Of a DNA stretch of 64,000 bases, positions 1,074 to 31,541 are shown one piece after another (positions within the stretch are counted from its first letter, which is position 1; the number at the start of each line of letters is the position of its first letter). Made by a program: the position numbers and the translations under genes. The DNA lies in the IMG/VR virus record IMGVR_UViG_3300009149_000016, positions 43,137-107,136 of that record. The stretch is one strand, 5' to 3'. This DNA comes from a virus. Under the pieces are notes generated by a model, which ran no database searches, was not told the origin of the DNA, and saw nothing but the letters and a program-made list of their open reading frames with translations.

Positions 1074-2303
1074 CTACTTGTCGGTCTTCTTACGGGGCTC
1101 GTGCCGCCAGGCCGAGCCCTCTACTTTGTCAGCAAGACTTGCACAGAACGCGCCGGGGTCGTCGATCTTGCCTTCCATCTTTTTGATGCAGGCGGTGACC
1201 TTGTGCTTGTTGTCGCCCGTGAGCTTGCCCCAGAACTTTTTGACGCTCTCATCCGTCCAGCCCTTCGGCAGCTTGTTCCACTTGCCAGCCTCTACGGTCA
1301 CCAAGTCGCTTCCGAACACCAGGGAGGCCCGAACGCACCGGATGCTGTTGGAAGCCATCTTCTCGGCGCACTTGGGGCAGATCTCGGCCATCATCTTCTG
1401 ATCGACCCAGAAGTCCGACAACGGCTGCGAACCGATGTGCTCGGCTGCGACCCGAAGGGTCATGTCGGAAGCGGTCTTGTTTTCTTTTCTGAGGTGGTCA
1501 AACAGTGCGCCCATGGCGTATTTCTCCCGTGGGGCAATTTCATTCCACATCTCGTCAACGACGTCTTTGATTGCCCAATCGATCTCTTGCGGCTGGTTTT
1601 CGACGTCAAGCCCCTGGTCCGTCAGGTACTTCCAGACCTTGTCGTAGGAGAATTCGCTCCCCCGGCCTGTCAACTTCGCCATGATGTGGCTGATCGCCTG
1701 GCGCTCCGGGGTCCAAAGGTCAGACATCGACGGGTCTACTTTGAAGTCGAACGGAAAGACCCCTCGACGAACGTTGTCGATGGCTCGTTCCAGGTCGCGC
1801 CGGATGAATTTGTCGAAGTAGTAGCGAACCTGAACCTCGATCTCCCGGGTCCAATCGTCCTTGTTCTCTTCAATGGAATCTTGGAGGCTTTTGAGAACCT
1901 TGTCTGCAAGCTTGCGCATGAAGCGCTCAATCCGGCGAAACGTCTTGTTGTCAACCCGGTTGATCTGTCCCTTGCGGTCAAGCTGGACAATCTTGGCTGA
2001 CATCTGGTTCGCTCGGCCGTAGACCTTTTCGTTGCCGTCGGTCGCACGCCACATGGCGACCATCTTGCGTTCCGTGTCGTAAACCCAAAGGTACTTCCAC
2101 TTGTTGCCGGAAGGGAGCTTGATCAACCGTGCGCCGCCAGGTACCTCTTCCTCATCCCCTAAGGCATCCATGAGGGGACCAGCATCGGTCGAGAGGTTAT
2201 AGGTCTCACCATCGATCTTGACGGTGGGCACACCCGGCTTGCGTTGCAGCGGGATCACATCACCAGAAAAGCGTTGAACGATTCTTTGTACCAAGGGATC
2301 CAT
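1074..2303 (-). CDS. hypothetical protein, possible virion internal protein
   Basis: Long ORF; likely start MDPLVQRIVQRF at 2303 with AAGGGG RBS; internal LRVAAEH; C-terminal Cys-containing domain. Confidence 0.7.
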   Translation of the reverse strand: MDPLVQRIVQRFSGDVIPLQRKPGVPTVKIDGETYNLSTDAGPLMDALGDEEEVPGGARLIKLPSGNKWKYLWVYDTERKMVAMWRATDGNEKVYGRANQMSAKIVQLDRKGQINRVDNKTFRRIERFMRKLADKVLKSLQDSIEENKDDWTREIEVQVRYYFDKFIRRDLERAIDNVRRGVFPFDFKVDPSMSDLWTPERQAISHIMAKLTGRGSEFSYDKVWKYLTDQGLDVENQPQEIDWAIKDVVDEMWNEIAPREKYAMGALFDHLRKENKTASDMTLRVAAEHIGSQPLSDFWVDQKMMAEICPKCAEKMASNSIRCVRASLVFGSDLVTVEAGKWNKLPKGWTDESVKKFWGKLTGDNKHKVTACIKKMEGKIDDPGAFCASLADKVEGSAWRHEPRKKTDK

Positions 2304-3171: not shown

Positions 3172-4035
3172 TTACTGAGCTTGTAGTTTCGCTTGGAAGT
3201 ATTTCTTGAACAGCTTTGCTGTCGTCGAACCAATGGCTTTTCGAGCCTCCTTGCTATCGACGATCTCCCCTGCACCCTCGCGCAAGACATCCTCCGTCAT
3301 CGCTTGGATGACTTCTTTGGTCCGTTCCATCCCGATGTCGCCCTCGATCTTGTCCAGGACATGCTCAAGGCGAGTCGGAGTCACCCACTCATCGGCGATG
3401 GCTTGCGCTTCCTCCAACACCTTGAGCTTTTCCGGGTCGACTACCTGGCGAGGCGTATTGGTCTCCCGCTCCTCATCTCGCTTGTGCTTCGAAAGGACAC
3501 GCTCCCCCCGGTGGTCTCGGTATTCCGTCAACGGACGAAGCACGACACCTTCACGGGGTTGAGGTTCTTCAATCCCATTGCGAACCGCTTGAACACTCGG
3601 CGCATCCCGCTGCTTGTCGATCTCTTCCACGGTGGCCGCAATCCGCTCATAGTGGACGAATTCCAAGCTAAGTTTGGTCGCAACATTATGGGCGTTTTCG
3701 ACGGACAGCCACGTGTCATCGATCTTGACCTCAAAGGCAGCGAACTTCAGATCCTTGCCGTATCTCCAGGTCTGCTTTTGCTGACTCCCACCATACGCTT
3801 CGCCGTAGACAACCACGGTCGGATGACCCAGCGCCTCGAAGGCTTTCACAAGCGCAGCCTCATCGAACAGCGACCGAAAGCGTTCCGCCTTCGCGCCGCC
3901 CGACGAGAATTGCAACTTGCCATCCCGCCATTGGATGCTGGTTGACGTCCCATGGAGCTTTTCCAAGGCAAAGCATTCCTTGAAGGCTAGGATTCCCTGG
4001 TTCTTATAGAGGTTCTCGATGTGTCGGTAGCCCAT
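3172..4035 (-). CDS. RNA ligase, Rnl2 family
   Basis: Nucleotidyltransferase motifs I (EKLHGT), III (VYGE), IIIa (FAAFEV), IV (EGVVLRP) and V (KHK); C-terminal VTPTRLEHVLDKI resembles the Rnl2 C-domain. Confidence 0.85.
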   Translation of the reverse strand: MGYRHIENLYKNQGILAFKECFALEKLHGTSTSIQWRDGKLQFSSGGAKAERFRSLFDEAALVKAFEALGHPTVVVYGEAYGGSQQKQTWRYGKDLKFAAFEVKIDDTWLSVENAHNVATKLSLEFVHYERIAATVEEIDKQRDAPSVQAVRNGIEEPQPREGVVLRPLTEYRDHRGERVLSKHKRDEERETNTPRQVVDPEKLKVLEEAQAIADEWVTPTRLEHVLDKIEGDIGMERTKEVIQAMTEDVLREGAGEIVDSKEARKAIGSTTAKLFKKYFQAKLQAQ

Positions 4036-4041
4036 TTGATC

Positions 4042-4227
4042 TCATCTTTCGTTGCAGAAAGGAATCTTCTTCCGCTCCATCTCGGCCTTGGCCTGGCAAG
4101 AGATACACCAGGCCACTTCAGGCCAGTTGGCTCGGCTTTTTTGACAGGTGGTGCCCTGCATCATGCAAGGCTTCTTTCCAAGCTCTAGAAGCTTCGCATA
4201 GGGCAGGGCTTCGAGGGGGCGTTTCAT
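4042..4227 (-). CDS. small Cys-rich hypothetical protein
   Basis: ATGA overlap with the clpX stop; C-x6-C...CxxC. Confidence 0.55.
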   Translation of the reverse strand: MKRPLEALPYAKLLELGKKPCMMQGTTCQKSRANWPEVAWCISCQAKAEMERKKIPFCNER

Positions 4228-5486
4228 CCCTTGGCCTGCTTTTTCTCCTCTTGCTGGATCGCTTCATCGATCCGGGCTTCGGCCCCCTCGACCACCAACT
4301 CAGTAACGTGGATCGCCTTCATGTCGGGGTCAGAGGGCGCGTCGAACATGTAGGGCTCCAAGATAGCCTCAACGATCCCTCGGAGCGCTCTTGCCCCCGT
4401 GGGCTTCTCGCAAGCCTTGCGAGCGATGGCATGCAGGGCATCATCGTCGAACGAAAGGGCAACCTCATCGATCGTGAACAGCGCTTCGAACTGCTTGACC
4501 AGGGCGTTCTTGGGTTCGGTCAGGATACGCACCATCTCATCCTCGGTCAGGGGAAGCGTGCTGGTGATCACCGGCAGCCGGCCGAGAAGCTCAGGGATCA
4601 GACCAAAGTCGAGGATATCATCCTCGGTAATGTTGCCGTAAACCTCATCGGCCTTGATCCTGTTGGGCTGCCCCCCGCCGAATCCGAGCCGGGCGCCCTT
4701 GTTCCGGCGCTCGCCCACGACTTCCTCGATCCCGGCGAACGATCCCGAACAGATGAACAGGATGTTGGTTGTGTCGATCATGTCGGAAGTACCCATCCCG
4801 ATCTTCGAACCCATCCCACGAGGCACGGGCACAACCCCACCCTCGACAAGCTTCAGAAGGGCTTGCTGGACGCCTTCACCGGACACATCTCGGTACCCCG
4901 TCGCTCCCCGCCCGCTCTTGCGGGTGAGCTTGTCGATCTCGTCCACGAAGATGACGCCCCACTCGGCGCGCTCGATATCCCCATCGGCGTCCTGAATGAG
5001 CCCCTGAAGCATCGTCTCGACGTCATCACCGACGTAGCCAGCTTGCGTCATGCGCGTCGCATCCGACACGTAGAAGGGCAGCTTGAGCATACGTGCCACC
5101 GACCGAGCGATGTGGGTCTTGCCGGTACCCGACGGGCCCATGAGCAAGATGTTGGACTTGTCGATTTCGATATCGCCCGCAATCCCGTCCTTGACTACGC
5201 CACGTCGTTTGAAGTGGTTGTAGACCGCAATGGCAATCGCTCGCTTGGCACGGTCTTGGCCGATCACATGCTCGCTGAGGATCTTGAAGATCTCACGGGG
5301 CTTGAGAAGGATGTCATCCCCGCCCTGTTCCGCAGCTTCCTTGTTGCGGTTGGTGATCGCCTTGACGGCAGAATCAATGCAGCGGTTGCAAATGAAGGGT
5401 CCTTCGTCACCACCCGAGATGATGTGCTTCACCTCGTTGGAAGGGCGACCGCAGAAGGAGCAGACTTGACGCTTGGCTCTGGGCAT
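4224..5486 (-). CDS. clpX: ATP-dependent Clp protease ATP-binding subunit ClpX
   Basis: C4 zinc domain (CSFC...CNRC), Walker A GPSGTGKT, GYVG pore loop, Walker B FVDEIDK, RDVSGEGVQQALLK, LGF loop, GARALR sensor 2. Confidence 0.97.
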   Translation of the reverse strand: MPRAKRQVCSFCGRPSNEVKHIISGGDEGPFICNRCIDSAVKAITNRNKEAAEQGGDDILLKPREIFKILSEHVIGQDRAKRAIAIAVYNHFKRRGVVKDGIAGDIEIDKSNILLMGPSGTGKTHIARSVARMLKLPFYVSDATRMTQAGYVGDDVETMLQGLIQDADGDIERAEWGVIFVDEIDKLTRKSGRGATGYRDVSGEGVQQALLKLVEGGVVPVPRGMGSKIGMGTSDMIDTTNILFICSGSFAGIEEVVGERRNKGARLGFGGGQPNRIKADEVYGNITEDDILDFGLIPELLGRLPVITSTLPLTEDEMVRILTEPKNALVKQFEALFTIDEVALSFDDDALHAIARKACEKPTGARALRGIVEAILEPYMFDAPSDPDMKAIHVTELVVEGAEARIDEAIQQEEKKQAKG

Positions 5487-5522: not shown

Positions 5523-6257
5523 CTAGATCTCACCCATCACGAAGCAAGGCTCACTCCACTTGAGACCTTCACATTCGACCAATCCGTGCGGATGAATCAC
5601 GCACACGCCACCTTCCCCGAAATTGTTGGGAAGCTCTTTGCCATATCGGTTGGCAACGACCAACACACACTTATTGTCCTTGGCGAATTCCATCCATGTA
5701 ACGGCAGGAAAACCCCCATCGCCCCAGTTGGCACTCATCGCCACGATATCCGCATCCCCGGGATCGTAGAAGTAAGACCCTTTCTCGGTGGCCTTGTCTC
5801 GAATGTCCCGACAGATCAACAACCCCATCTTCAGCATCCGCTTGCCGTCAAGGATATGGATCACGGGAGGATTGTCGAAACCAGGATCAGCCCAAAGAAA
5901 GTCGTTCCCCCACCGGTTGATCTTGTTGTAGCTCTGGTAGTAGCCCCCCGGCGTCACCAGCACTTGGCTATTGAACAGATGATCGTCGACATGGGAGACC
6001 ATTCCCCACACGATATCCACGTTATATCGCCGAGCGACTTCCATCATGACCTTGAGCGTTGGCCCAGTGCTGATGTTCTCGGAGAGCTTCCAGGCGTCTT
6101 CCTTGTTCATGATGGAATAGCCCGTCGTGCAAAGCTCTGGTAGCACCACTAGCCTCGCGCCCGCTTTGGCAGCATCGACCACCAGCCGGGCTGCTTGTAG
6201 CAGGTTGACCTCTTTTTTTCCAAAGACGGGCTGAAACTGAACGGCTGCAACCTTCAT
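5523..6257 (-). CDS. carbon-nitrogen hydrolase (nitrilase superfamily)
   Basis: Glu-Lys-Cys triad motifs VLPELCTTGY, YNK and LLICRD; N-terminal KVAAVQF; VANRYG. Confidence 0.92.
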   Translation of the reverse strand: MKVAAVQFQPVFGKKEVNLLQAARLVVDAAKAGARLVVLPELCTTGYSIMNKEDAWKLSENISTGPTLKVMMEVARRYNVDIVWGMVSHVDDHLFNSQVLVTPGGYYQSYNKINRWGNDFLWADPGFDNPPVIHILDGKRMLKMGLLICRDIRDKATEKGSYFYDPGDADIVAMSANWGDGGFPAVTWMEFAKDNKCVLVVANRYGKELPNNFGEGGVCVIHPHGLVECEGLKWSEPCFVMGEI

Positions 6258-7597
6258 GCGTCTACCACCAATTCCTCGAACAAAGCTGCTTGGGACGGGG
6301 GAAGCTCGCCCAAACAGTAAAAAGCGAACATTTCGGCAAAGTTCTCATCTGGGCTTGTCTTGGCGTACGGGGTGATGAACCCCTTGAAATCGTTCTTGAG
6401 CATCCTTGGGTCGATGCCCTTGAGTCTCAGGTACCCGAACAGGTTGATCTCCGCTGTATCAATAGAGAAGCTGCGGCGGGTGATGATGTCGATGAGCATC
6501 TTCTTTTCCCGCTCTTGCTCTGGCGTGAGAACCCCTTTGAACAGATCGGGAGCCTGCTTTTCCGCAGAACGAAGCACCTGAGCTTCAAGCTCTTTCTTGT
6601 CCTTGTCCGTCAGGACTTTCCGAAGATGAACCTTGTCTTTCTTCATGTACGTGACTTCGTACGTCTCGCCCTTATCCGTGATGGTGTCACCACGTTCGGG
6701 ACGATAACCAAGGAAGTCGCTCTGATACCCATCCTCGGCGGCATTGTAGAGGATCTTGGGCACACGCTTGTTTTTCAAGAACTTGTTTTCGTACCGATGA
6801 CCAAGCTCATGAATGATGGTGCGCACGGAGCTTCCCGCCGCAATTTTCTTGTCAGCACGAACGAAGAATTCATCCGACCCGTAAACGTAGAACGCAAGTA
6901 CGTTCCCTTTGTCGATCGACTGGCTGATATGAACCTCGCCGTAGCAGACCTTGCCAAGCCCAGCGGTTGTGATCTCCGATGCAGCCTCTTTGACTGCCTT
7001 AGCGCAGATGTCCATCACACCATCGGGGAAGCCACCCATGTTGATGAGGGTGAAGGGTCCGGCCTTGACCTTCACGGGGTCGTCGGCATCACCCACCGCA
7101 ATCTCACGACCCTTGCTCAGCGCTTCTTCCAGCGTACTGAAATGCGCCCGAAGGGTATCGAGGTACTTGAGATAGTACGTCAGGTAAGCATCGGTGCGCT
7201 CCAAGTCCTTCCTTGGGAGGCGGGGGCGGCGGTTGGTTTTCTTCGTCGCCCAAAACTTGACGAGCTTCTCGACCTTCTTACGCAGCGTTGCTGACAGGCT
7301 GTAGGTCTGGAGGATCGCCATCGAGATCCCCCACATCTGGTTGAACCGCTGATTGAAGCCGACCACCTCGGACATGATTGTGAACATGTCCCGACCGAAA
7401 TCGGGTTTTGCCACGTCCTTGCCACGAGCCAAGTCCTTTTTGTACTGCGAAAGGATGGCTTGGAACCGCTCGGCGTCCTTCTCAGCGTTGTCGTAAAGGT
7501 CGAACTTGCGCCGAAGCTCTTTGAGAAGTGCTTTCGGATCCTCGACGACCGCTGCCTCCAAGTACCGGGTGGCGACTCGCTCAGCATGAACGCTCAT
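6254..7597 (-). CDS. zincin-like metallopeptidase domain protein
   Basis: HELGH plus distal YAKTSPDENFAEMF third-ligand motif; start at 7597 overlaps the CCA-gene stop (ATGA). Confidence 0.75.
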   Translation of the reverse strand: MSVHAERVATRYLEAAVVEDPKALLKELRRKFDLYDNAEKDAERFQAILSQYKKDLARGKDVAKPDFGRDMFTIMSEVVGFNQRFNQMWGISMAILQTYSLSATLRKKVEKLVKFWATKKTNRRPRLPRKDLERTDAYLTYYLKYLDTLRAHFSTLEEALSKGREIAVGDADDPVKVKAGPFTLINMGGFPDGVMDICAKAVKEAASEITTAGLGKVCYGEVHISQSIDKGNVLAFYVYGSDEFFVRADKKIAAGSSVRTIIHELGHRYENKFLKNKRVPKILYNAAEDGYQSDFLGYRPERGDTITDKGETYEVTYMKKDKVHLRKVLTDKDKKELEAQVLRSAEKQAPDLFKGVLTPEQEREKKMLIDIITRRSFSIDTAEINLFGYLRLKGIDPRMLKNDFKGFITPYAKTSPDENFAEMFAFYCLGELPPSQAALFEELVVDA

Positions 7598-8802
7598 GCC
7601 AACCACCGGTTGGCAACTCGGAGGGCCACACGATCCGCCCCGGACTGAACGAGCCTCGTGAGCCGGTCTTGAAGCTCTCGTGGCTTGACGAAGGGGTCGT
7701 CCAGGATCAGATCCCGGGCCATGTCCACAGCTTTGCTAATGGCGGCTCCCTTGATGCCCGTATCCTGAATGAGCCGTCGGGTATCAATCGGCGGCTTCAA
7801 AAGCTTGTTGTAGACATCTTCCAAGTCGTCATAGCCGAGCTTGCTCTCAATCCGGCGAAGCATCCGGAGATGTTCAGGACGGAGCTTGTCCAACCCTACC
7901 GGAATCTCGAAACCGGCGAGCGTCAAAAGCAGATCGATGTTCTTGACTCGTTGTCCCACGGCTCGACGCAAACGGCTTGCCGGAAACATCGAAAGCACAG
8001 GATCGAGAAGTCCGAGCCCCTTCATGATGGTGAGCGCCTTTTTAGCGCCGGGCAGCTTCAGGATCTTGTCGAAGAAAAGCTCGTCGATCGCCTCGTACGA
8101 AACCCTTTTGATTTCCTTGGCTTTGCTCTTGATCGCCCGCCGAGTCGCCGGGTCCAATTCGAAACCGTATTTCACAGCAAAACGAATCGCCCGAAGCATC
8201 CGGGTCGGGTCGTCATCGAAGGTCTCGTTGGGGTCAAGAGGCGTCTTGACGATCTTGTCCTGCAAGTCCTTGAGCCCAAGCCCGGTCAAGTCGAGGATGG
8301 CTTTCTTGTCGGGACCTTGAGCCACATCGAGAAGCCGCCACACGAGCGCGTTGAACGTGAAGTCCCGGCGAAGCATGTCTTCGAGGATTGTTCCGGGCTC
8401 GACCTTCGAAGGCTTGTGACTCCCCTTTTCCTCTCCCTTGCCCTTTTCGTACTTCTCTTTGCGAGAAGTCACGATCTCGATCTTCTGTCCTTTGAGGTTG
8501 ACCCCGTCGAATTCAACGTCCACGGGGACAGGTCCAATGTGCACGACGCCGTATTGGTCGGCCTTGACGTTGGGTACCTGAAGGGCATCGGCAACCGCTT
8601 CGGCGAGCGTGACGGCATTCTTGCCGTTTTTCGGCTCGACCACCACGTCGACATCTTTGAAGTCGAACCCCAAAGCGAAGTCCCGGGGGGCCCCGCCCAC
8701 GATGTAACTGTGACTGGCCATACCAAGCCGTTTGGCGGTGGCTGACAGCAGTTTGACCAAGGCGTTGGCCTGTTGGGGGGTGGCGTCGGCAAGTCGGAAC
8801 AT
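7594..8802 (-). CDS. class II tRNA nucleotidyltransferase (CCA-adding / poly(A) polymerase family)
   Basis: YIVGGAPRD, DVDV, EDMLRRDFTFNAL and DDPTRMLRAIRF motifs; no HD domain evident. Confidence 0.92.
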   Translation of the reverse strand: MFRLADATPQQANALVKLLSATAKRLGMASHSYIVGGAPRDFALGFDFKDVDVVVEPKNGKNAVTLAEAVADALQVPNVKADQYGVVHIGPVPVDVEFDGVNLKGQKIEIVTSRKEKYEKGKGEEKGSHKPSKVEPGTILEDMLRRDFTFNALVWRLLDVAQGPDKKAILDLTGLGLKDLQDKIVKTPLDPNETFDDDPTRMLRAIRFAVKYGFELDPATRRAIKSKAKEIKRVSYEAIDELFFDKILKLPGAKKALTIMKGLGLLDPVLSMFPASRLRRAVGQRVKNIDLLLTLAGFEIPVGLDKLRPEHLRMLRRIESKLGYDDLEDVYNKLLKPPIDTRRLIQDTGIKGAAISKAVDMARDLILDDPFVKPRELQDRLTRLVQSGADRVALRVANRWLA

Positions 8803-8871: not shown

Positions 8872-9189
8872 ATGAAGACTCTCGAAGCCCCCTCAGCCGT
8901 CACCGTCAACGCAGTCGCCCGCAAGTGGGCCAAGGCGCGTCCCGAGAGCGCTCAGCGCATCAAGCGGGCGGTCGCCCTGGTCGCCACCGTCGAGCGCACC
9001 GGCTCCCACACGTTCGCCGTCGAAGGCTCGGACGGTCGCAGCTACCAGGTGTGGGTCAACTGGCAGAAGCACACGAGCACATGCACATGCCCTGACTCGA
9101 TGGGTCGGGGAGCCAAGTGCAAGCACCGCTGGGCTGCGGCGCTCGTCATCGCCGGCCGGTCAACCGACCGCAAGGCTGCCCAAGCCTAG
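8872..9189 (+). CDS. SWIM zinc-finger protein
   Basis: VEGSDGRSYQV...CTCPD...CKH SWIM signature. Confidence 0.85.
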   Translation: MKTLEAPSAVTVNAVARKWAKARPESAQRIKRAVALVATVERTGSHTFAVEGSDGRSYQVWVNWQKHTSTCTCPDSMGRGAKCKHRWAAALVIAGRSTDRKAAQA

Positions 9190-9617
9190 ACGGTCGCTTG
9201 GGGTGCCTGGGACTTGCGCTTGAGGAACTGGCGCTCCCAATGCTTGCTCCGGGTTCCCAAGTACAGGACCCGGTCGTTCGGACACGGCGTGACGATCACG
9301 TTTGTCATCGGCACCCGCCCAACCTTTTTCCCACACTGAAGCTTGTAGCCGGTCCCATTGGTCCAAACGGCGCCCCGCCCGCTCGTGAGCAGTTCGCTCG
9401 CAAGGTCCATCGCGTGCGTCCGGTCAATCCGAAACCGAATGAACGTGAGAGCGCCGATGTTGAGCGGGCCGTTCGCTTCGAGGAAATCAAACTTGATCTG
9501 GGCTTTCGCTGCGGTTCGCAAGACTGCTTCTGCGACGTCTTGGACCGATTCGAGGGATTGTTGTTCGACAGCGAAGTACGTCGCCGGGGTGTTCGAAGGA
9601 AAGAAGTGGTGCATCAT
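9186..9617 (-). CDS. hypothetical protein
   Basis: ATGA overlap with the DHFR stop. Confidence 0.6.
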   Translation of the reverse strand: MMHHFFPSNTPATYFAVEQQSLESVQDVAEAVLRTAAKAQIKFDFLEANGPLNIGALTFIRFRIDRTHAMDLASELLTSGRGAVWTNGTGYKLQCGKKVGRVPMTNVIVTPCPNDRVLYLGTRSKHWERQFLKRKSQAPQATV

Positions 9618-10402
9618 GTTCGTACGTAGTAGCGGTGGAGAAGGTCAGGGTCGTCGGGGTTGTGGCTCTCGGATTCGAGAGTGAATGCTTCCATGGGCAG
9701 GCGAGGCATCGGGGTGATGTCACCCATTGAGAGAACCACAAGATCTGGCACGATTGTCAGATCCAATGCGTCGACGAATGGCAGCGCCGCCTCATAGACC
9801 ATCGCACCACCCGCTACCCACCTTGGTCGTCCAGCAAAGTACATTCTCGAAAGTTCGAACGCAAGCTCGATTTCGTTGACTGCCCGCACGCCCGTGTCTT
9901 GAAACGGACCTGGGTTGCTCGTGAGCACGATGATCTCACGCCCCTTGAGCTTTTTCCGTCCAAGCGACTCGTAGGTCTTGCGCCCCATGATGAGCACACC
10001 GCCCATCGTCCGCTGTTTGAATCGGCGCATGTCGGCCTTACGATGCCACGGGATGCCTCCGTCGGCTCCGATGACACCTTGGGGGTTGATGGCGGCGATA
10101 AGCGTCGTCTTGACCTGTTTCTCTTCCACTATGCGCTCCCAGATGGTTGGGCGACCGGCGAGGGGCCCCCAAATCTCCAAAGCTTCCTCTTGGGTGGCCT
10201 CTCGCTCTGGGATCTTGTCCAAATCCATGATCTGCTCAGGCTTGTAGACATGCCCCCGGTCGACGAAGTAGCTCTTGTGGTCGGAAGGCATCTCTCCGGG
10301 CTTGAGGAAACGCCCCATGTTGAGCACGAGAAGCAGAAATCCATCCGTCGTTCGATGCCATTTGACGATCTGCTTCGTTGCCAGGATGTAGGTGCGGCCC
10401 AT
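9614..10402 (-). CDS. folA: dihydrofolate reductase with ~90-aa N-terminal extension
   Basis: LIAA...VIG...IPW...DMRRFKQRT...IMGRKTYESL...VAGGAMVY DHFR motifs in the C-terminal ~170 aa. Confidence 0.88.
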   Translation of the reverse strand: MGRTYILATKQIVKWHRTTDGFLLLVLNMGRFLKPGEMPSDHKSYFVDRGHVYKPEQIMDLDKIPEREATQEEALEIWGPLAGRPTIWERIVEEKQVKTTLIAAINPQGVIGADGGIPWHRKADMRRFKQRTMGGVLIMGRKTYESLGRKKLKGREIIVLTSNPGPFQDTGVRAVNEIELAFELSRMYFAGRPRWVAGGAMVYEAALPFVDALDLTIVPDLVVLSMGDITPMPRLPMEAFTLESESHNPDDPDLLHRYYVRT

Positions 10403-10659
10403 CAAAACACTCCAAGGTGAACACAGGGGGTCTCATTGACCGGAGAAGTCCACCCCAAGATCAGACATAGAGGACAAGGGATGTGCTCAAACTCGATACC
10501 ATGCACCTTTTCCACCCGCAAGATCGCCTGAAGGTACCTCTTGGACATCGGAAAGTGATGCCTTCGAAGATACCTCCAGCCTGTCACGTACCACAGGATA
10601 CAGCACGGGTGGATATCCGAGCGCAGCCCGTTGACCATGTGCTCAAAGGTGTCACTCAC
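10402..10659 (-). CDS. hypothetical Cys/His protein
   Basis: Overlaps both neighbours (GTGA, TGATG); IHPCC and IPCPLC. Confidence 0.6.
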   Translation of the reverse strand: MSDTFEHMVNGLRSDIHPCCILWYVTGWRYLRRHHFPMSKRYLQAILRVEKVHGIEFEHIPCPLCLILGWTSPVNETPCVHLGVF

Positions 10660-11771
10660 ACGGCGACCTTGAACTTGATGTTTTCCCGGGGCATGTAGTT
10701 CTCGATCCGGAACAGCTTCATGATCTGCTCCGTCGTCACCGAAGGATCCAAAAGGGCCTCAACGTCTTCGAGCGTCCGAATGGAATCGTCAATGAAAAGA
10801 TTGGGGGGCGAGTCAATGTCCCGCTCAAGCTGTTCTTCGAGCCCGGGTACGTGGTCGTACTCGGCTTGGGTACCGTCGGCTTTCTTCGTGTAGATGTGGG
10901 TATCCACGAGCGTGTGGCCGAAGATCCCAGCTTCCATGTCGGCAAACCGAGCCATGAGCGAACACAGAAGGGCGTAGCTTGCGAGGTTGTACGGCACCCC
11001 CAACGCCACATCGCATGAGCGCTGGGTCAAGTGCAGGCAAAGCCGTCGGGGGTCGTCATAGGCCGGACCATCCTTGAAAGGTTCACTCTTGTGAATCTTG
11101 TTCAAGATTTGTTTGCACTTGGGACACCAAGCTTGCCCCCGATCAAGCACAGCAATTCCGGTTCGGGTTTGCGAACCACGAGGTGCGCCGCAGACAGGAT
11201 CAAATCCGTCGTTGTGCCCATAGTGGAACACCTTGTCCACGCCCTGGTTCTGGACGTTGAAGATGAACATGCAGTGGCAGGGGGCCCAATAGGTCTTGAG
11301 GGTCGGGGGCGTTTGCACGATGTGAGGCTGCCAGGCGCTTACCACGAGATCCCGCCGCATCGGGTTGGTCTGAAGCTGCCCCATCACCCACTTGATTTGG
11401 TCGTTCCATTCGGTGACCGGCCCATCGTAGCCGAGCCCCGTCTCATCCATACGGTAGCCGGGGGTCTCGAACCGGCGCCAGGCGGGCCCATAGGCGGCGT
11501 TGACCTTCCCGTCGTCCCGGTACCAGGGTCGCCAGAACTTGATCCCATGCCGCTCAAGGAAGTCTTGCCCGTTGGTACCCGACAGGAACCACAGAAGCTC
11601 GATCACAATGTTCTTCCACTGGATTTCCTTCGTGGTCAGAAGCGGGAAGCCATCCCTCAGATCGTGCTCGTAGTAGTACCCAAACGTTGACAAGGTGTCT
11701 ACGCCAGTTCGGTTTTCCTTGCGAACGCCGTGCTTGAGCACATGGCGCACGAGATCATGATATTGTCTCAT
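10656..11771 (-). CDS. thyA: thymidylate synthase with internal insertion
   Basis: NRTG, FPLLTTK, ELLWFL, PCH catalytic Cys, QRSCD...VPYN (dUMP-specifying Asn), DTHIY, C-terminal KVAV. Confidence 0.95.
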   Translation of the reverse strand: MRQYHDLVRHVLKHGVRKENRTGVDTLSTFGYYYEHDLRDGFPLLTTKEIQWKNIVIELLWFLSGTNGQDFLERHGIKFWRPWYRDDGKVNAAYGPAWRRFETPGYRMDETGLGYDGPVTEWNDQIKWVMGQLQTNPMRRDLVVSAWQPHIVQTPPTLKTYWAPCHCMFIFNVQNQGVDKVFHYGHNDGFDPVCGAPRGSQTRTGIAVLDRGQAWCPKCKQILNKIHKSEPFKDGPAYDDPRRLCLHLTQRSCDVALGVPYNLASYALLCSLMARFADMEAGIFGHTLVDTHIYTKKADGTQAEYDHVPGLEEQLERDIDSPPNLFIDDSIRTLEDVEALLDPSVTTEQIMKLFRIENYMPRENIKFKVAV

Positions 11772-11997
11772 TTTCCACTTTCACGGGGAGGGGGTAGTGA
11801 ATGAAGTCGAAGGTGGCGCAGGTTCCGCAGCTTCGGCACTTGTAGACGTAGATTCCATCCCGAATGGCCTTGAACACCGGATCCACGTTGAGAAACTCAC
11901 CACATTTGCAGCGGGTCACGAAGCCTTGGTCGGCAAGTAGCTTCTGTTCCAGCCGTTTCCGAAGATAGGCGTGGTACCAGTCAACCAAGAACTTCAT
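11755..11997 (-). CDS. small zinc-ribbon protein
   Basis: CKC...CRSC; GGAGAGG RBS; ATGA overlap. Confidence 0.6.
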   Translation of the reverse strand: MKFLVDWYHAYLRKRLEQKLLADQGFVTRCKCGEFLNVDPVFKAIRDGIYVYKCRSCGTCATFDFIHYPLPVKVENETIS

Positions 11998-12272
11998 AGC
12001 CTCTCCCAGATGGTTGGGCGCTTCTGGTCCCACCCCAGTTCGGCCTCACGCACCCTGGAAGCGTGCACGAAGGCTTCCAGGGCGTCGTAGAAGTCCGTCG
12101 TGTGCAAGGTTATGCGCTCGTTGGAGCACAAGAGTCCATCCTTGACTCGCAGGGTGACCACCGGAACCTTTTCCCTCCGGTCGATCTTGAGATAAACCAC
12201 ATCACCTACGGCAAAAACGGTGACGTCATCCTCATCGGAGTTGGCTTCCGGGCCGATAACAACGGTCCTCAT
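11994..12272 (-). CDS. hypothetical protein ending in RPTIWERL
   Basis: ATGA-coupled on both sides. Confidence 0.65.
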   Translation of the reverse strand: MRTVVIGPEANSDEDDVTVFAVGDVVYLKIDRREKVPVVTLRVKDGLLCSNERITLHTTDFYDALEAFVHASRVREAELGWDQKRPTIWERL

Positions 12273-30401: not shown

Positions 30402-30751
30402 CACTTCTCCCGATAGTAGGAGTAGACCTTGGGGGCGTTCTTCGACTTGTAGGCGTCCAACTTGGTCTTGAGCGCCGTCCACAAGCGAGGGTCGGACCCA
30501 AGATGGTTGGAGATGAGCCGGTAGCGTCCCCAGTTCGTGATCAGTTCTTCCAACTTGAACGGAAGCTTTTCCAATGCACCAAGGGACTTGAGCCATGGCA
30601 TCAAGATGTGGTTTCGCCCAAAAACCAAAGCGATCTGCTCAATCGCAACGACAACGTCACCTCGGTGAGGCACCGTCACTCTGTCTTTCAACAGTTGCTG
30701 GGCTTCCATCTTGACGTCGACGGGGAGCTTGAGATCTGCTGTCGGATTCAT
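30401..30751 (-). CDS. hypothetical protein
   Basis: Coupled on both sides; ends VYSYYREK. Confidence 0.6.
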   Translation of the reverse strand: MNPTADLKLPVDVKMEAQQLLKDRVTVPHRGDVVVAIEQIALVFGRNHILMPWLKSLGALEKLPFKLEELITNWGRYRLISNHLGSDPRLWTALKTKLDAYKSKNAPKVYSYYREK

Positions 30752-31023
30752 CGCACCACCGAAATTGCTTTTTCGAGAATCTTCCGAGCATCCGCAGAGG
30801 CCCTCGCTGGAGTGTCCCCCTCACCCGTGACAACAGGGGCACCCCCACCGAAGTACAACGCGCAGAACCATTTGTTGGACAAGGGGCCATACCCTTTTTT
30901 CATGGTCGCACGACCAATCTTCCTTCCTTTCGCAACCAAAGGAAGGGTGAAGCCCTCAGCCCCGGAGATGTCATCTACCCAAGGTTTCCAAGCAGCGATG
31001 TGGGTTCGGTCGTAGGAGTACAT
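30748..31023 (-). CDS. hypothetical protein
   Basis: Starts MYSYDR; coupled on both sides. Confidence 0.6.
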   Translation of the reverse strand: MYSYDRTHIAAWKPWVDDISGAEGFTLPLVAKGRKIGRATMKKGYGPLSNKWFCALYFGGGAPVVTGEGDTPARASADARKILEKAISVVR

Positions 31024-31541
31024 CACTCACCGTATTTCTTCAAAAGATCATCGACGTCCTTGCCCGTCACCGGGCTGCTGTCCTTGACCGTGACAACGGT
31101 GATCTCTGGGCTCACAATCACGACTTGGTCGACATCCTTGGCCTTGACGCCGTCAGGAAGCTCGATCTCGATCGTCTCTTCACCCGGGGGAGTAATCTTC
31201 ACGACGTCAGGATCGTCGAAAAGACCAGGAAGCTCGACAGGGACCACCTTGGCTTGGGTGACGCCCTTCGAATCAGGTGTGCCCGGCCGGATGATGTTGC
31301 CATCCTTGTCGACTCGACCCTCCGGAATGGAGTTGGCAATGTCGATGGCGCGCTTGGCCGACTTCCGGTCACGCCCAAAAAGCTTGCCGAGAAGCCCACC
31401 GATCTGAGGCTTGAACCCCAAAACGATGAGAAGCCCGGCGCCGACCACGATGAGGATGGCGACACCCGGAGCGAAGATCGTACGAGAGATCTTCTTTAGC
31501 CATCGCCAGGTGGCTTGCCAGAAGGTCTCTTCCTCGCTCAT
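31023..31541 (-). CDS. N-terminally membrane-anchored protein
   Basis: IFAPGVAILIVVGAGLLIVLGF hydrophobic helix; ATGA overlap at 31541. Confidence 0.7.
   Translation of the reverse strand: MSEEETFWQATWRWLKKISRTIFAPGVAILIVVGAGLLIVLGFKPQIGGLLGKLFGRDRKSAKRAIDIANSIPEGRVDKDGNIIRPGTPDSKGVTQAKVVPVELPGLFDDPDVVKITPPGEETIEIELPDGVKAKDVDQVVIVSPEITVVTVKDSSPVTGKDVDDLLKKYGE

Follow-up and report, generated by a model that had tools for sequence, protein, structure and literature searches.

A short portable peptide tag on unrelated accessory proteins of an uncultured giant-phage clade, with the phage ClpX as its candidate reader

A ten-residue peptide with the consensus phi-A-[E/L]-R-[V/I]-A-x-R-[Y/F/W]-[L/Q/V] is shared by otherwise unrelated proteins encoded in a stretch of 64,000 nucleotides (the window) of the viral record IMGVR_UViG_3300009149_000016, a sequence for which no nucleotide similarity to known phages was found. 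This tag is a real feature that is under selection as a peptide, is modular and ancient, and gathers near clpX. It is a genuine portable module and apparently an undescribed one, and no description of it was found in the literature. Short portable tags that address proteins to one machine are known from T4 heads, encapsulins and the SspB/ClpX adaptor; to our knowledge, no such tag has been described for the large uncultured phages of soil and sediment metagenomes. It is read here as a portable docking tag, and its most likely reader is the phage's own ClpX unfoldase, although the physical contact, which is suggested by the gene neighbourhood, is given slightly less than an even chance.

Two copies of the tag lie in an operon that the initial annotation had described as three ATGA-coupled genes, and both overlaps can be read directly in the sequence. 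The stop codon TGA of the CCA gene (7596-7594) overlaps the ATG of the zincin gene (7597-7595), and the zincin stop codon (6256-6254) overlaps the ATG of the nitrilase gene (6257-6255). The end of the CCA enzyme and the start of the zincin both carry R-V-A-x-R-[YW]-L, as had been noticed. The features of the operon and its surroundings are as follows.

7594-8802, minus strand: tRNA nucleotidyltransferase (CCA-adding family), 402 aa, with a C-terminal tag (PF01743, 7.5e-17; PF12627; phrog_2244, 1e-30)
7597-7638, minus strand: C-terminal tag of the CCA enzyme, ADRVALRVANRWLA, a partly doubled copy (sequence and AlphaFold2)
6254-7597, minus strand: gluzincin-type metallopeptidase (zincin), 447 aa, with an N-terminal tag (HELGH at 6797-6811, ENFAEMF at 6326-6346; weak PF15890)
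7559-7597, minus strand: N-terminal tag of the zincin, MSVHAERVATRYL (sequence and AlphaFold2)
5523-6257, minus strand: nitrilase-superfamily hydrolase, 244 aa, untagged, ATGA-coupled to the zincin (PF00795, CN_hydrolase, 1.2e-21)
4224-5486, minus strand: phage ClpX, 420 aa, candidate tag reader (zf-C4_ClpX, PF06689, 6.5e-11; AAA_2, 5.4e-27)
9186-9617, minus strand: 143-aa protein, conserved partner of the nitrilase-ClpX cluster (tblastn)

The CCA enzyme consists of a PolyA_pol head (PF01743) and an RNA-binding domain (PF12627), both above the cut-offs, and the GG..R and D.D columns of the class II CCA-adding/poly(A) polymerase family are conserved in 39 orthologues. Its AlphaFold2 model (pLDDT 90.4) is confident to about residue 387, and after a break at 388-390 the tag forms a helix at 391-401 with a pLDDT of about 57. 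Concerning the zincin, Pfam gave a weak match to Peptidase_Mx1 (PF15890), but H263, E264, H267, E418 and E422 are invariant in 40 homologues, that is, the HExxH motif plus the downstream Glu of the gluzincins. Foldseek returned weak matches to M1/LTA4H, collagenase and lethal-factor catalytic domains (probability up to 0.98, E >= 0.1), with no PDB match below E 0.1. The zincin model has a pLDDT of 89.6 and a body that is confident from residue 21; the tag helix (3-15) lies at about 58, residues 15-17 are below 50 and residues 16-20 have no regular structure. No relative of this zincin was found in cultured phages, and only two weak metagenomic records matched it.

A proteome-wide search, which had been proposed as a check, showed that the tag is enriched about 80-fold. 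The pattern R[VI]AxR[YWF] occurs 8 times in the 107-kb contig (112 called proteins, 32,456 aa) against 0.10 expected from composition, and in 300 shuffles the mean was 0.12 and no shuffle had more than 2. Every copy falls within a real minus-strand gene, mostly at a terminus. The copies vary freely at synonymous sites and use different codons for every conserved residue, which places the selection on the peptide; a DNA repeat or duplication is ruled out on the same ground. The claim that the tagged proteins are otherwise unrelated also held, since the flanking sequences are unrelated and the tag swaps ends between orthologues, which rules out a shared domain or paralogy. A Tat or Sec signal was dismissed by eye, given the single Arg, the lack of a following hydrophobic region and the C-terminal copies. 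On the other hand, the AVARKW of the SWIM protein (8911-8928), once suggested as a weak match, lies outside the motif and was left out of the count.

Within the tag, positions 1, 2, 5, 6, 9 and 10 are hydrophobic, 4 and 8 are Arg, and 3 and 7 are variable, which is the periodicity of a helix. In 5 of 9 copies here the residue before the first Arg is Glu, and elsewhere it is Leu, Lys or Gln; the internal and C-terminal copies have a K-[TS]-A prefix in common. In the AlphaFold2 models of the zincin and the CCA enzyme the tag is a low-confidence helix that follows a short break or a low-confidence stretch. The tag could thus be, at the low confidence of these models, a ten-residue amphipathic helix on a short flexible linker.

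Copies were found at the N-terminus, at the C-terminus and inside proteins. Among the 21 closest CCA orthologues, 7-9 keep the tag at the C-terminus and 8 carry a YxYDRR tail instead; across CCA orthologues in general it is C-terminal, N-terminal or absent, and the strict tag is absent from 34 mid-distance ones. The initial annotation had proposed a check of cellular CCA homologues, and these lack the tag: of 51, none matched the strict pattern and 1 matched a looser one. The zincin homologues bear the N-terminal tag in 34-44 of 85 cases, and 8-9 also have a copy near the C-terminus.

The carriers in this phage are the CCA enzyme, the zincin, a topoisomerase IB (TopIB) and several proteins of unknown function; in relatives, J-domain proteins are also among them. 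The tag is at or near the C-terminus, or internal, in the CCA enzyme, in a 113-aa and a 335-aa protein and in many homologues. The phiM12 homologue of a 133-aa carrier is untagged. A second cluster of tagged genes (133-aa, 335-aa, TopIB and 509-aa) lies 12-17 kb from clpX in this contig. Copies had also been reported in the 1074-2303 protein, and the features concerned, with a possible tag on an RNA ligase, are as follows.

1074-2303, minus strand: two-module protein p425 (a longer ORF spans 1074-2351; 2303 is the likely true start)
2268-2303, minus strand: N-terminal tag variant of p425, MDPLVQRIVQRF (sequence)
1437-1478, minus strand: degenerate internal tag of p425, KTASDMTLRVAAEH, at the joint between the two modules (sequence)
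3172-4035, minus strand: Rnl2-type RNA ligase (PF09414, 2.6e-13), with a possible degenerate C-terminal tag TTAKLFKKYFQ (3193-3225)

p425 has no Pfam or PHROG match. In the complete relative G002 the first module stands alone as a gene of 268 aa, and this homologue spans only aa 20-274. Both p425 copies are plausible: the form MDPLxxRVxxRF also heads proteins of two other contigs (L005 and L034) and several zincin homologues, and the arrangement of KTA followed by the tag recurs in relatives at C-termini or fusion joints. The internal copy is immediately preceded by ALFDHL, a copy of a second, C-terminal type of tag. The resemblance of the RNA ligase tail is weak, and it was left out of the tag statistics. 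In the relative L020 a single ORF of 1085 aa encodes a TopIB-p509-zincin polyprotein with tags at its joints, and another relative has a fusion of a 2H protein to a zincin (P0069). Module joints are tagged in three proteins, namely the 1085-aa polyprotein, p425 and the 335-aa protein.

The clpX gene is located two genes downstream of the tagged zincin. Its product has the motifs CSFCG, CNRC, Walker A, GYVG, Walker B and LGF, and its zinc-binding domain aligns to the E. coli ClpX structures 1OVX/2DS8 with all four Cys, so the canonical domain is kept. Nitrilase, ClpX and zincin remain adjacent in varying order even where the zincin is only about 30% identical. Nitrilase orthologues (about 50% identical) adjoin ClpX in 8 related loci, and tblastn placed the 143-aa protein near nitrilase/ClpX in seven (L004, L005, L009, L018, L026, L031 and G002). 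The tagged neighbours of ClpX belong to at least seven mutually unrelated families (G001, G003, G004, G005, L018 and L031), with three tagged genes in a row in G003.

The crowding was measured with strict tags only, in nine new, independently fetched ClpX-centred loci of the clade. Per 10,000 aa there were 5.1 tags within 1.5 kb of ClpX, 2.2 from 1.5 to 3 kb, 0.8 from 3 to 5 kb and none from 5 to 10 kb (28,280 aa), and 6 of 7 strict tags fell in the nearest 29% of the sequence (binomial p about 0.003). In this contig alone the enrichment near clpX is not significant (p about 0.07, hand calculation). Distant ClpX loci (34-45% identity, n = 24) contained 1 strict tag in about 149,000 aa. The complete relative G002 has a whole-genome density of 0.4 per 10,000 aa and no strict tag within 20 kb of its clpX. 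All five related records searched have a ClpX orthologue, and therefore its presence is of no use as a discriminator; ClpP (PF00574) was absent from the same five records in a search whose control worked.

Evolution would have attached the tag to the ends or joints of a few unrelated accessory proteins of this uncultured giant-phage clade. It would probably bind the N-terminal zinc-binding domain of ClpX, as the XB tail of SspB does when it tethers cargo. The tagged proteins could then be held at ClpX and be unfolded and destroyed on schedule with ClpP of the host, which is the supposed partner because the phage keeps the ClpP-docking LGF loop and encodes no ClpP. Alternatively, the tagged proteins may themselves be adaptors or partners of ClpX; the zincin, which frequently has a tag at each end, would be a candidate.

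The XB core is A-L-R-V-V, and the zinc-binding domain binds the XB tail as an extended strand (PDB 2DS8). The commonest core of the present tag, A-L-R-V-A, is close to it, both are followed by a basic residue, and the tagged genes have as a neighbour a clpX whose product retains an intact zinc-binding domain. Both are short, flexible-linker peptides that act independently of position; XB is reported to bind the domain at any position of the chain, and tethering alone can cause degradation (PMC12373786). However, the tag is longer than XB and has an aromatic residue after the second Arg, and its periodicity is that of a helix rather than a strand, so the binding mode would differ. Moreover, it stands on about 5-10 different enzymes per phage whereas XB stands on one adaptor, and the reader would be a viral ClpX without its own ClpP.

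Several points speak against ClpX as the reader. The crowding is partly shared synteny with the zincin, and clpX may simply sit in an island of accessory genes. What a phage would gain by marking a tRNA-repair enzyme for destruction is hard to see, and neither the lack of tags near clpX in G002 nor the distance of the second cluster is in its favour. If ClpX does read the tag, giant phages would use a private label to control how long their tRNA-repair, topoisomerase and protease enzymes persist or how they are delivered. This would add a new level to viral gene regulation, and biotechnology would gain an orthogonal tag, ready for use, for tethering or degradation. If the reader is the head, the tag would list the enzymes that a giant phage injects against host defences. 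Either way, it offers a sequence handle for functionally linked proteins among hundreds of unannotated genes.

A broader idea, put forward only tentatively, is that the clade has its own protein-addressing code. In it, at least three terminal peptides would be interchangeable and would direct accessory enzymes and early proteins to a viral ClpX that works without a viral ClpP, so that the host protease destroys them at set times or they are unfolded and loaded into the head. The three would possibly be the R-V-A-x-R-[YFW] helix, the C-terminal T-x-W-[DE]-R-L type and the Y-x-Y-D-R-R tail. Such a code would, equally tentatively, amount to a viral system of degrons or cargo signals in which the labels can be exchanged.

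The initial annotation had favoured a capsid-targeting or maturation signal, and this was not supported: copies are also C-terminal and internal, no cleavage motif is conserved beside them, and no head genes are recognisable in this contig, a fragment with tail-fibre genes. Capsid loading, perhaps with ClpX as the loader, is not the best-supported reading and we consider it rather unlikely. The helix would bind the procapsid interior or a scaffold, and carriers such as the CCA enzyme, the zincin and TopIB would enter the head along with the DNA and be injected, with ClpX possibly feeding them in. The T4 capsid-targeting sequence (IPI-III, Alt) occurs at the N-terminus only, and the prohead protease removes it by cleavage after L/I-x-E. 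Like it and the N-terminal packaging signal of P1 DarB, the tag is a short peptide shared by unrelated proteins of a large phage, including enzymes useful just after injection; unlike the T4 signal, it is not confined to the extreme N-terminus and has no consistent cleavage motif. A T4 gp21-type prohead protease model (PF03420) had no match in five related records, although the control genomes gave none either. Furthermore, no tail-fibre or other large structural protein of the window is tagged, and the tagged genes lie among nucleotide-metabolism, RNA-repair and accessory genes and crowd near clpX, not near structural genes.

In favour of loading, the basic amphipathic helix on a flexible linker, at either end of diverse enzymes, recalls the cargo-loading peptides of encapsulins, but the sequences differ, the encapsulin peptide binds in an extended rather than helical form and no shell gene adjoins the cargo genes here. 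The carriers also resemble the polyvalent proteins, predicted to be packaged and injected (zincin hub, Pol-beta-type nucleotidyltransferase, 2H phosphoesterase), for which domains and no short shared peptide were described (Iyer et al. 2017, PMC5512222). In both cases a zincin peptidase hub goes with nucleic-acid and anti-defence enzymes; here, however, they are separate genes linked only by the tag, and the fused form is limited to relatives, namely the 1085-aa ORF and P0069, which also count in favour. In addition, phage ClpX has been suggested to translocate unfolded proteins or to help virion assembly (Iyer et al. 2021, PMC7824862).

It is unlikely that another hub is involved, with the tags binding each other through an Ala-x-x-x-Ala face, or binding host DnaK, host ClpX or a phage scaffold that gathers RNA-repair and anti-defence enzymes. 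The small-x3-small spacing of the Ala residues and the tandem copies do suggest helix-helix packing and avidity, and the J-domain carriers and the absence of ClpX crowding in G002 point the same way. Nevertheless, the gene context offers no candidate hub except ClpX.

Still less probable is that the tagged proteins are pieces of a split polyvalent protein whose modules are released or activated by the zincin; it would bind the tag, in cis where the copy is its own, and cut next to it, at the K-T-A prefix for instance. The zincin is the most constant carrier and often has two tags, the tags occupy the joints of the three multi-module proteins, the K-[TS]-A prefix recurs, and autoprocessing by such peptidases has been proposed (Iyer et al. 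2017, PMC5512222). However, the tag is kept on stand-alone genes over distances of about 30% identity, cutting at the extreme C-terminal copies would free merely a peptide, and the ClpX crowding of tagged genes other than the zincin would be left unexplained. The tag helix of the zincin itself is also of low confidence in AlphaFold2 (pLDDT about 58), and because of this no docked position is supported.

Finally, that the tag has no function (chance resemblance, local duplication at the CCA/zincin junction or an ancestral shared domain) is scarcely credible, even though the junction copies are separated by only about 40 nt and share about 75% of their DNA sequence, and it is refuted by the 8 copies against 0.1 expected, the free synonymous variation, the unrelated flanks, the persistence of the tag in dozens of distant contigs and its end-switching between orthologues.

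Regarding two minor features of the contig, a GGTGTAG upstream motif was considered as a timing marker of the operon and was not decisive. An in-frame TAG separates the 335-aa gene from the TopIB ORF; read-through is not needed there because the orthologues start at the tag.

In the window, which comes from a virus record made up of one 107-kb contig, the genes follow one another in minus-strand order as listed:

8802-7594, minus strand: CCA-adding-family nucleotidyltransferase, the first of the series
7597-6254, minus strand: zincin of 447 aa
6257-5523, minus strand: nitrilase-superfamily hydrolase
5486-4224, minus strand: full-length ClpX, after a 36-nt gap
between ClpX and the RNA ligase, minus strand: 61-aa ORF
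4035-3172, minus strand: Rnl2-type RNA ligase

The ATGA overlaps reported by the initial annotation for CCA/zincin and zincin/nitrilase were read in the sequence and both are real. The R-V-A-x-R-[YW]-L-type tag is also present where it had been noted, at the C-terminus of the CCA enzyme (...ADRVALRVANRWLA) and the N-terminus of the zincin (MSVHAERVATRYL), with the variant MDPLVQRIVQRF at the head of the 1074-2351 protein. The upstream GTG start in the ORF list is unnecessary for the zincin because its homologues begin a few residues before the motif.

Gene calling by codon-usage score gave 112 genes (32,456 aa) on the 107-kb contig. R[VI]AxR[YWF] appears in them eight times versus 0.10 expected from composition (300 shuffles: mean 0.12, maximum 2), and all copies are within minus-strand genes. 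The carriers are:

CCA enzyme: C-terminus
zincin: N-terminus
133-aa protein: N-terminus
335-aa protein: N-terminus and aa 298
topoisomerase IB (TopIB) ORF: just before the catalytic core
509-aa protein (p509): N-terminus
113-aa protein, whose gene immediately precedes that of a 2H phosphoesterase: C-terminal tail

The last pair (L001:12706-13588, minus strand; genome 12706-13588) overlaps by 32 nt at the 2H start and also adjoins in the related locus L034; the phosphoesterase matches 2_5_RNA_ligase2 and Acb1.

The aligned copies extend the pattern to phi-A-[E/L]-R-[V/I]-A-x-R-[Y/F/W]-[L/Q/V], where positions 1, 2, 5, 6, 9 and 10 are hydrophobic or small, 4 and 8 are Arg, and 3 and 7 are variable. 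Read from these copies, the periodicity corresponds to three alpha-helix stripes, just one stripe being free. In the AlphaFold2 model of the zincin (40 homologues; overall pLDDT 89.6) the confident body starts at residue 21 and the tag is a helix at 3-15 (pLDDT about 58); residues 15-17 are below pLDDT 50 and 16-20 are without regular structure. That of the CCA enzyme (39 orthologues; pLDDT 90.4) is confident to about residue 387, and the tag is a helix at 391-401 (pLDDT about 57) after a break at 388-390. A low-pLDDT helix beyond the confident body in both models suggests that the tag, on two unrelated folds, is a tethered helix, probably disorder-to-order.

The zincin was not found in cultured phages. 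Its metagenomic homologues number 85, and the contigs of some measure 100 to >500 kb. The tag lies within the first 45 residues of 34 of these homologues by the strict pattern and 44 by the looser one, and also within the last 45 of 8-9; their internal residues hold 3-5 matches in 28,900. Among CCA orthologues the tag changes ends, and cellular homologues lack it almost entirely, as the initial annotation had supposed.

Tags at the termini of CCA enzymes
Closest orthologues (n=21): C-terminal tag in 7-9; Y-x-Y-D-R-R tail instead in 8
Orthologues at 37-40% identity (n=13): N-terminal in 3, C-terminal in 4
Mid-distance orthologues (n=34): no tag at either terminus (0 strict matches)
Cellular HD-domain CCA enzymes (n=51): 0/51 strict, 1/51 by the looser pattern

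The 133-aa carrier and its phage homologues make up a small family; the member in Sinorhizobium phage phiM12 begins exactly at the end of the tag. Furthermore, in 32 IMG/VR loci with zincin homologues many other neighbouring proteins, including two J-domain proteins and a second metallopeptidase, are tagged at the start (often MDPLxxRVAARF/Y) or at the end (often with K-T-A before the tag). The complete 448-kb relative G002 has five strict tags versus 0.44 expected, and therefore tagged proteins are few per genome. From these comparisons the tag is old and portable. No description of it was found in the literature.

Concerning the reader of the tag, the gene context gives one consistent signal, ClpX. 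The nitrilase, ClpX, a 143-aa protein and usually the zincin occur together in eight related loci, in changing order. In four of the five relatives compared, and in the viral loci L018 and L031, clpX has tagged genes beside it, three of them in a row in the related genome G003; by all-against-all BLAST these neighbours are mostly of unrelated families. An unbiased test drew on 66 ClpX-centred viral loci, with nine non-redundant clade loci (ClpX at least 49% identical) set against 24 distant-ClpX loci.

Strict tags per 10,000 aa by distance from clpX, nine clade loci
0-1.5 kb: 5.1
1.5-3 kb: 2.2
3-5 kb: 0.8
5-10 kb: 0 (28,280 aa)

The nearest 29% of the clade sequence held 6/7 strict tags (binomial estimate, p about 0.003) and 10/12 relaxed ones (p about 2e-4), whereas the distant loci had one strict tag in about 149,000 aa.

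In the phage ClpX (4224-5486, minus strand) the zinc-binding domain with its four Cys, the Walker motifs, the GYVG pore loop and the LGF ClpP-docking loop are all present; a search for ClpP, whose control worked, found no such gene in five related records, of which two are complete. In the related genome G001 (C1:277143-279434) one 795-aa open frame contains the ClpX match in two separate parts, suggestive of an intein-like insert. The commonest tag core, A-L-R-V-A, resembles the A-L-R-V-V core of XB, the ClpX-tethering tail of the adaptor SspB, but XB binds strand-like and the phage tag has helical periodicity instead. XB is reported to bind the ClpX zinc-binding domain whatever its chain position, and tethering can by itself lead to degradation (PMC12373786). 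The tag is best read at present as a new helix-type variant of the ClpX-tethering or addressing peptides, putatively used by a clade of uncultured giant phages; the CCA-zincin-nitrilase-ClpX block would be a typical case. Docking on the phage ClpX itself is favoured tentatively, at slightly under an even chance. G002 lacks the crowding at clpX, zincin-ClpX synteny accounts for part of it, and on this contig another cluster of tags is 12-17 kb away from clpX.

The initial annotation took the tag for a capsid-targeting or maturation signal of virion-packaged enzymes. Its shared tag was confirmed and generalised, but the capsid reading gains partial support at most, and the consistent signal of the gene context goes to ClpX; the contig carries replication genes and tail-fibre-like giants, and no recognisable head genes. 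Capsid loading is considered unlikely, and as a destination the capsid is compatible with ClpX as reader, the two not being mutually exclusive; a role of phage ClpX in translocase activity or virion assembly has been raised (Iyer et al. 2021, PMC7824862). Docking on another hub is judged somewhat less probable again.

A processing site for the zincin is more doubtful still.

The tag also stands at joints within fused proteins. In L020:7676-10933 (plus strand), from a related viral contig of 148 kb, one ORF of 1085 aa encodes, in order, tag, TopIB catalytic domain, p509-like module, tag, tag and zincin; it is a polyvalent protein in the true sense, uniting what are separate genes in this virus. 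Likewise, P0069/L008 has a 2H phosphoesterase fused to zincin. The 1074-2351 protein has two modules: the first, a stand-alone 268-aa gene in G002, ends in ALFDHL, a copy of a second (C-terminal) tag type, and KTAS with a degenerate tag copy follows before module 2. Polyvalent proteins have a zincin peptidase as hub (Iyer et al. 2017, PMC5512222), a theme that matches, whereas here the modules are mostly separate genes with only the tag in common. Finally, the codons differ between copies (CGA/CGC/CGT/CGG/AGG for conserved Arg, GTC/GTT/GTG/GTA/ATT for Val/Ile, the other conserved residues likewise), therefore selection acts on the peptide and not on a DNA or RNA element, and a tag without function is very improbable.

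In L002:12674-14752 (minus strand; genome 32674-34752, upstream of the window) a single reading frame contains both the tagged 335-aa gene and the TopIB ORF, with one TAG and 18 codons between them. A highly charged stretch of ~95 aa precedes the tag ahead of the TopIB core, and the orthologues in G002 and L020 begin at the tag.

Other terminal peptides were also observed. The second tag, [TS]-x-[WYF]-[DE]-[RHL]-[LIM], often with an acidic tail after it, terminates at least 14 of the called proteins genome-wide (G000), most of them encoded by small genes on the plus strand. Its sites in the window are on the minus strand, at 11997-12017, at 10130-10150 and just 5' of 1437-1478; it ends ORF 11994-12272 (RPTIWERL), marks the joint between a ~90-aa module and the DHFR to which this is fused (9614-10405) and stands ahead of the internal KTAS tag in the 1074-2351 protein. 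A variant, SRFDL[IM], is on seven proteins of G002. The third tail, Y-x-Y-D-R-R, stands in for the R-V-A-x-R tag at the C-terminal end in the eight close CCA orthologues; two zincin homologues have it after the zincin core, and another has two copies at its N-terminus (proteins with it: P0086, P0042, P0043, P0096-P0107). The window ORF 30748-31026 starts MMYSYDR (31006-31023, minus strand).

The thymidylate synthase (10656-11771, minus strand) has 371 aa versus 318 aa in G002, and by eye the difference seems due to an insert that contains Cys, with a CPKC motif. Moreover, GGTGTAG precedes the ATG by 8-10 nt in at least 17 genes of both strands, clpX included. It stands 52 nt ahead of the CCA gene, and no gene of the tail-fibre block has it upstream. 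Minus-strand sites in the window include 5495, 8854, 13166, 17008, 17445, 17690 and 28334, and many plus-strand sites are upstream of it; the element may act as a promoter or as an unusual signal for ribosome binding.
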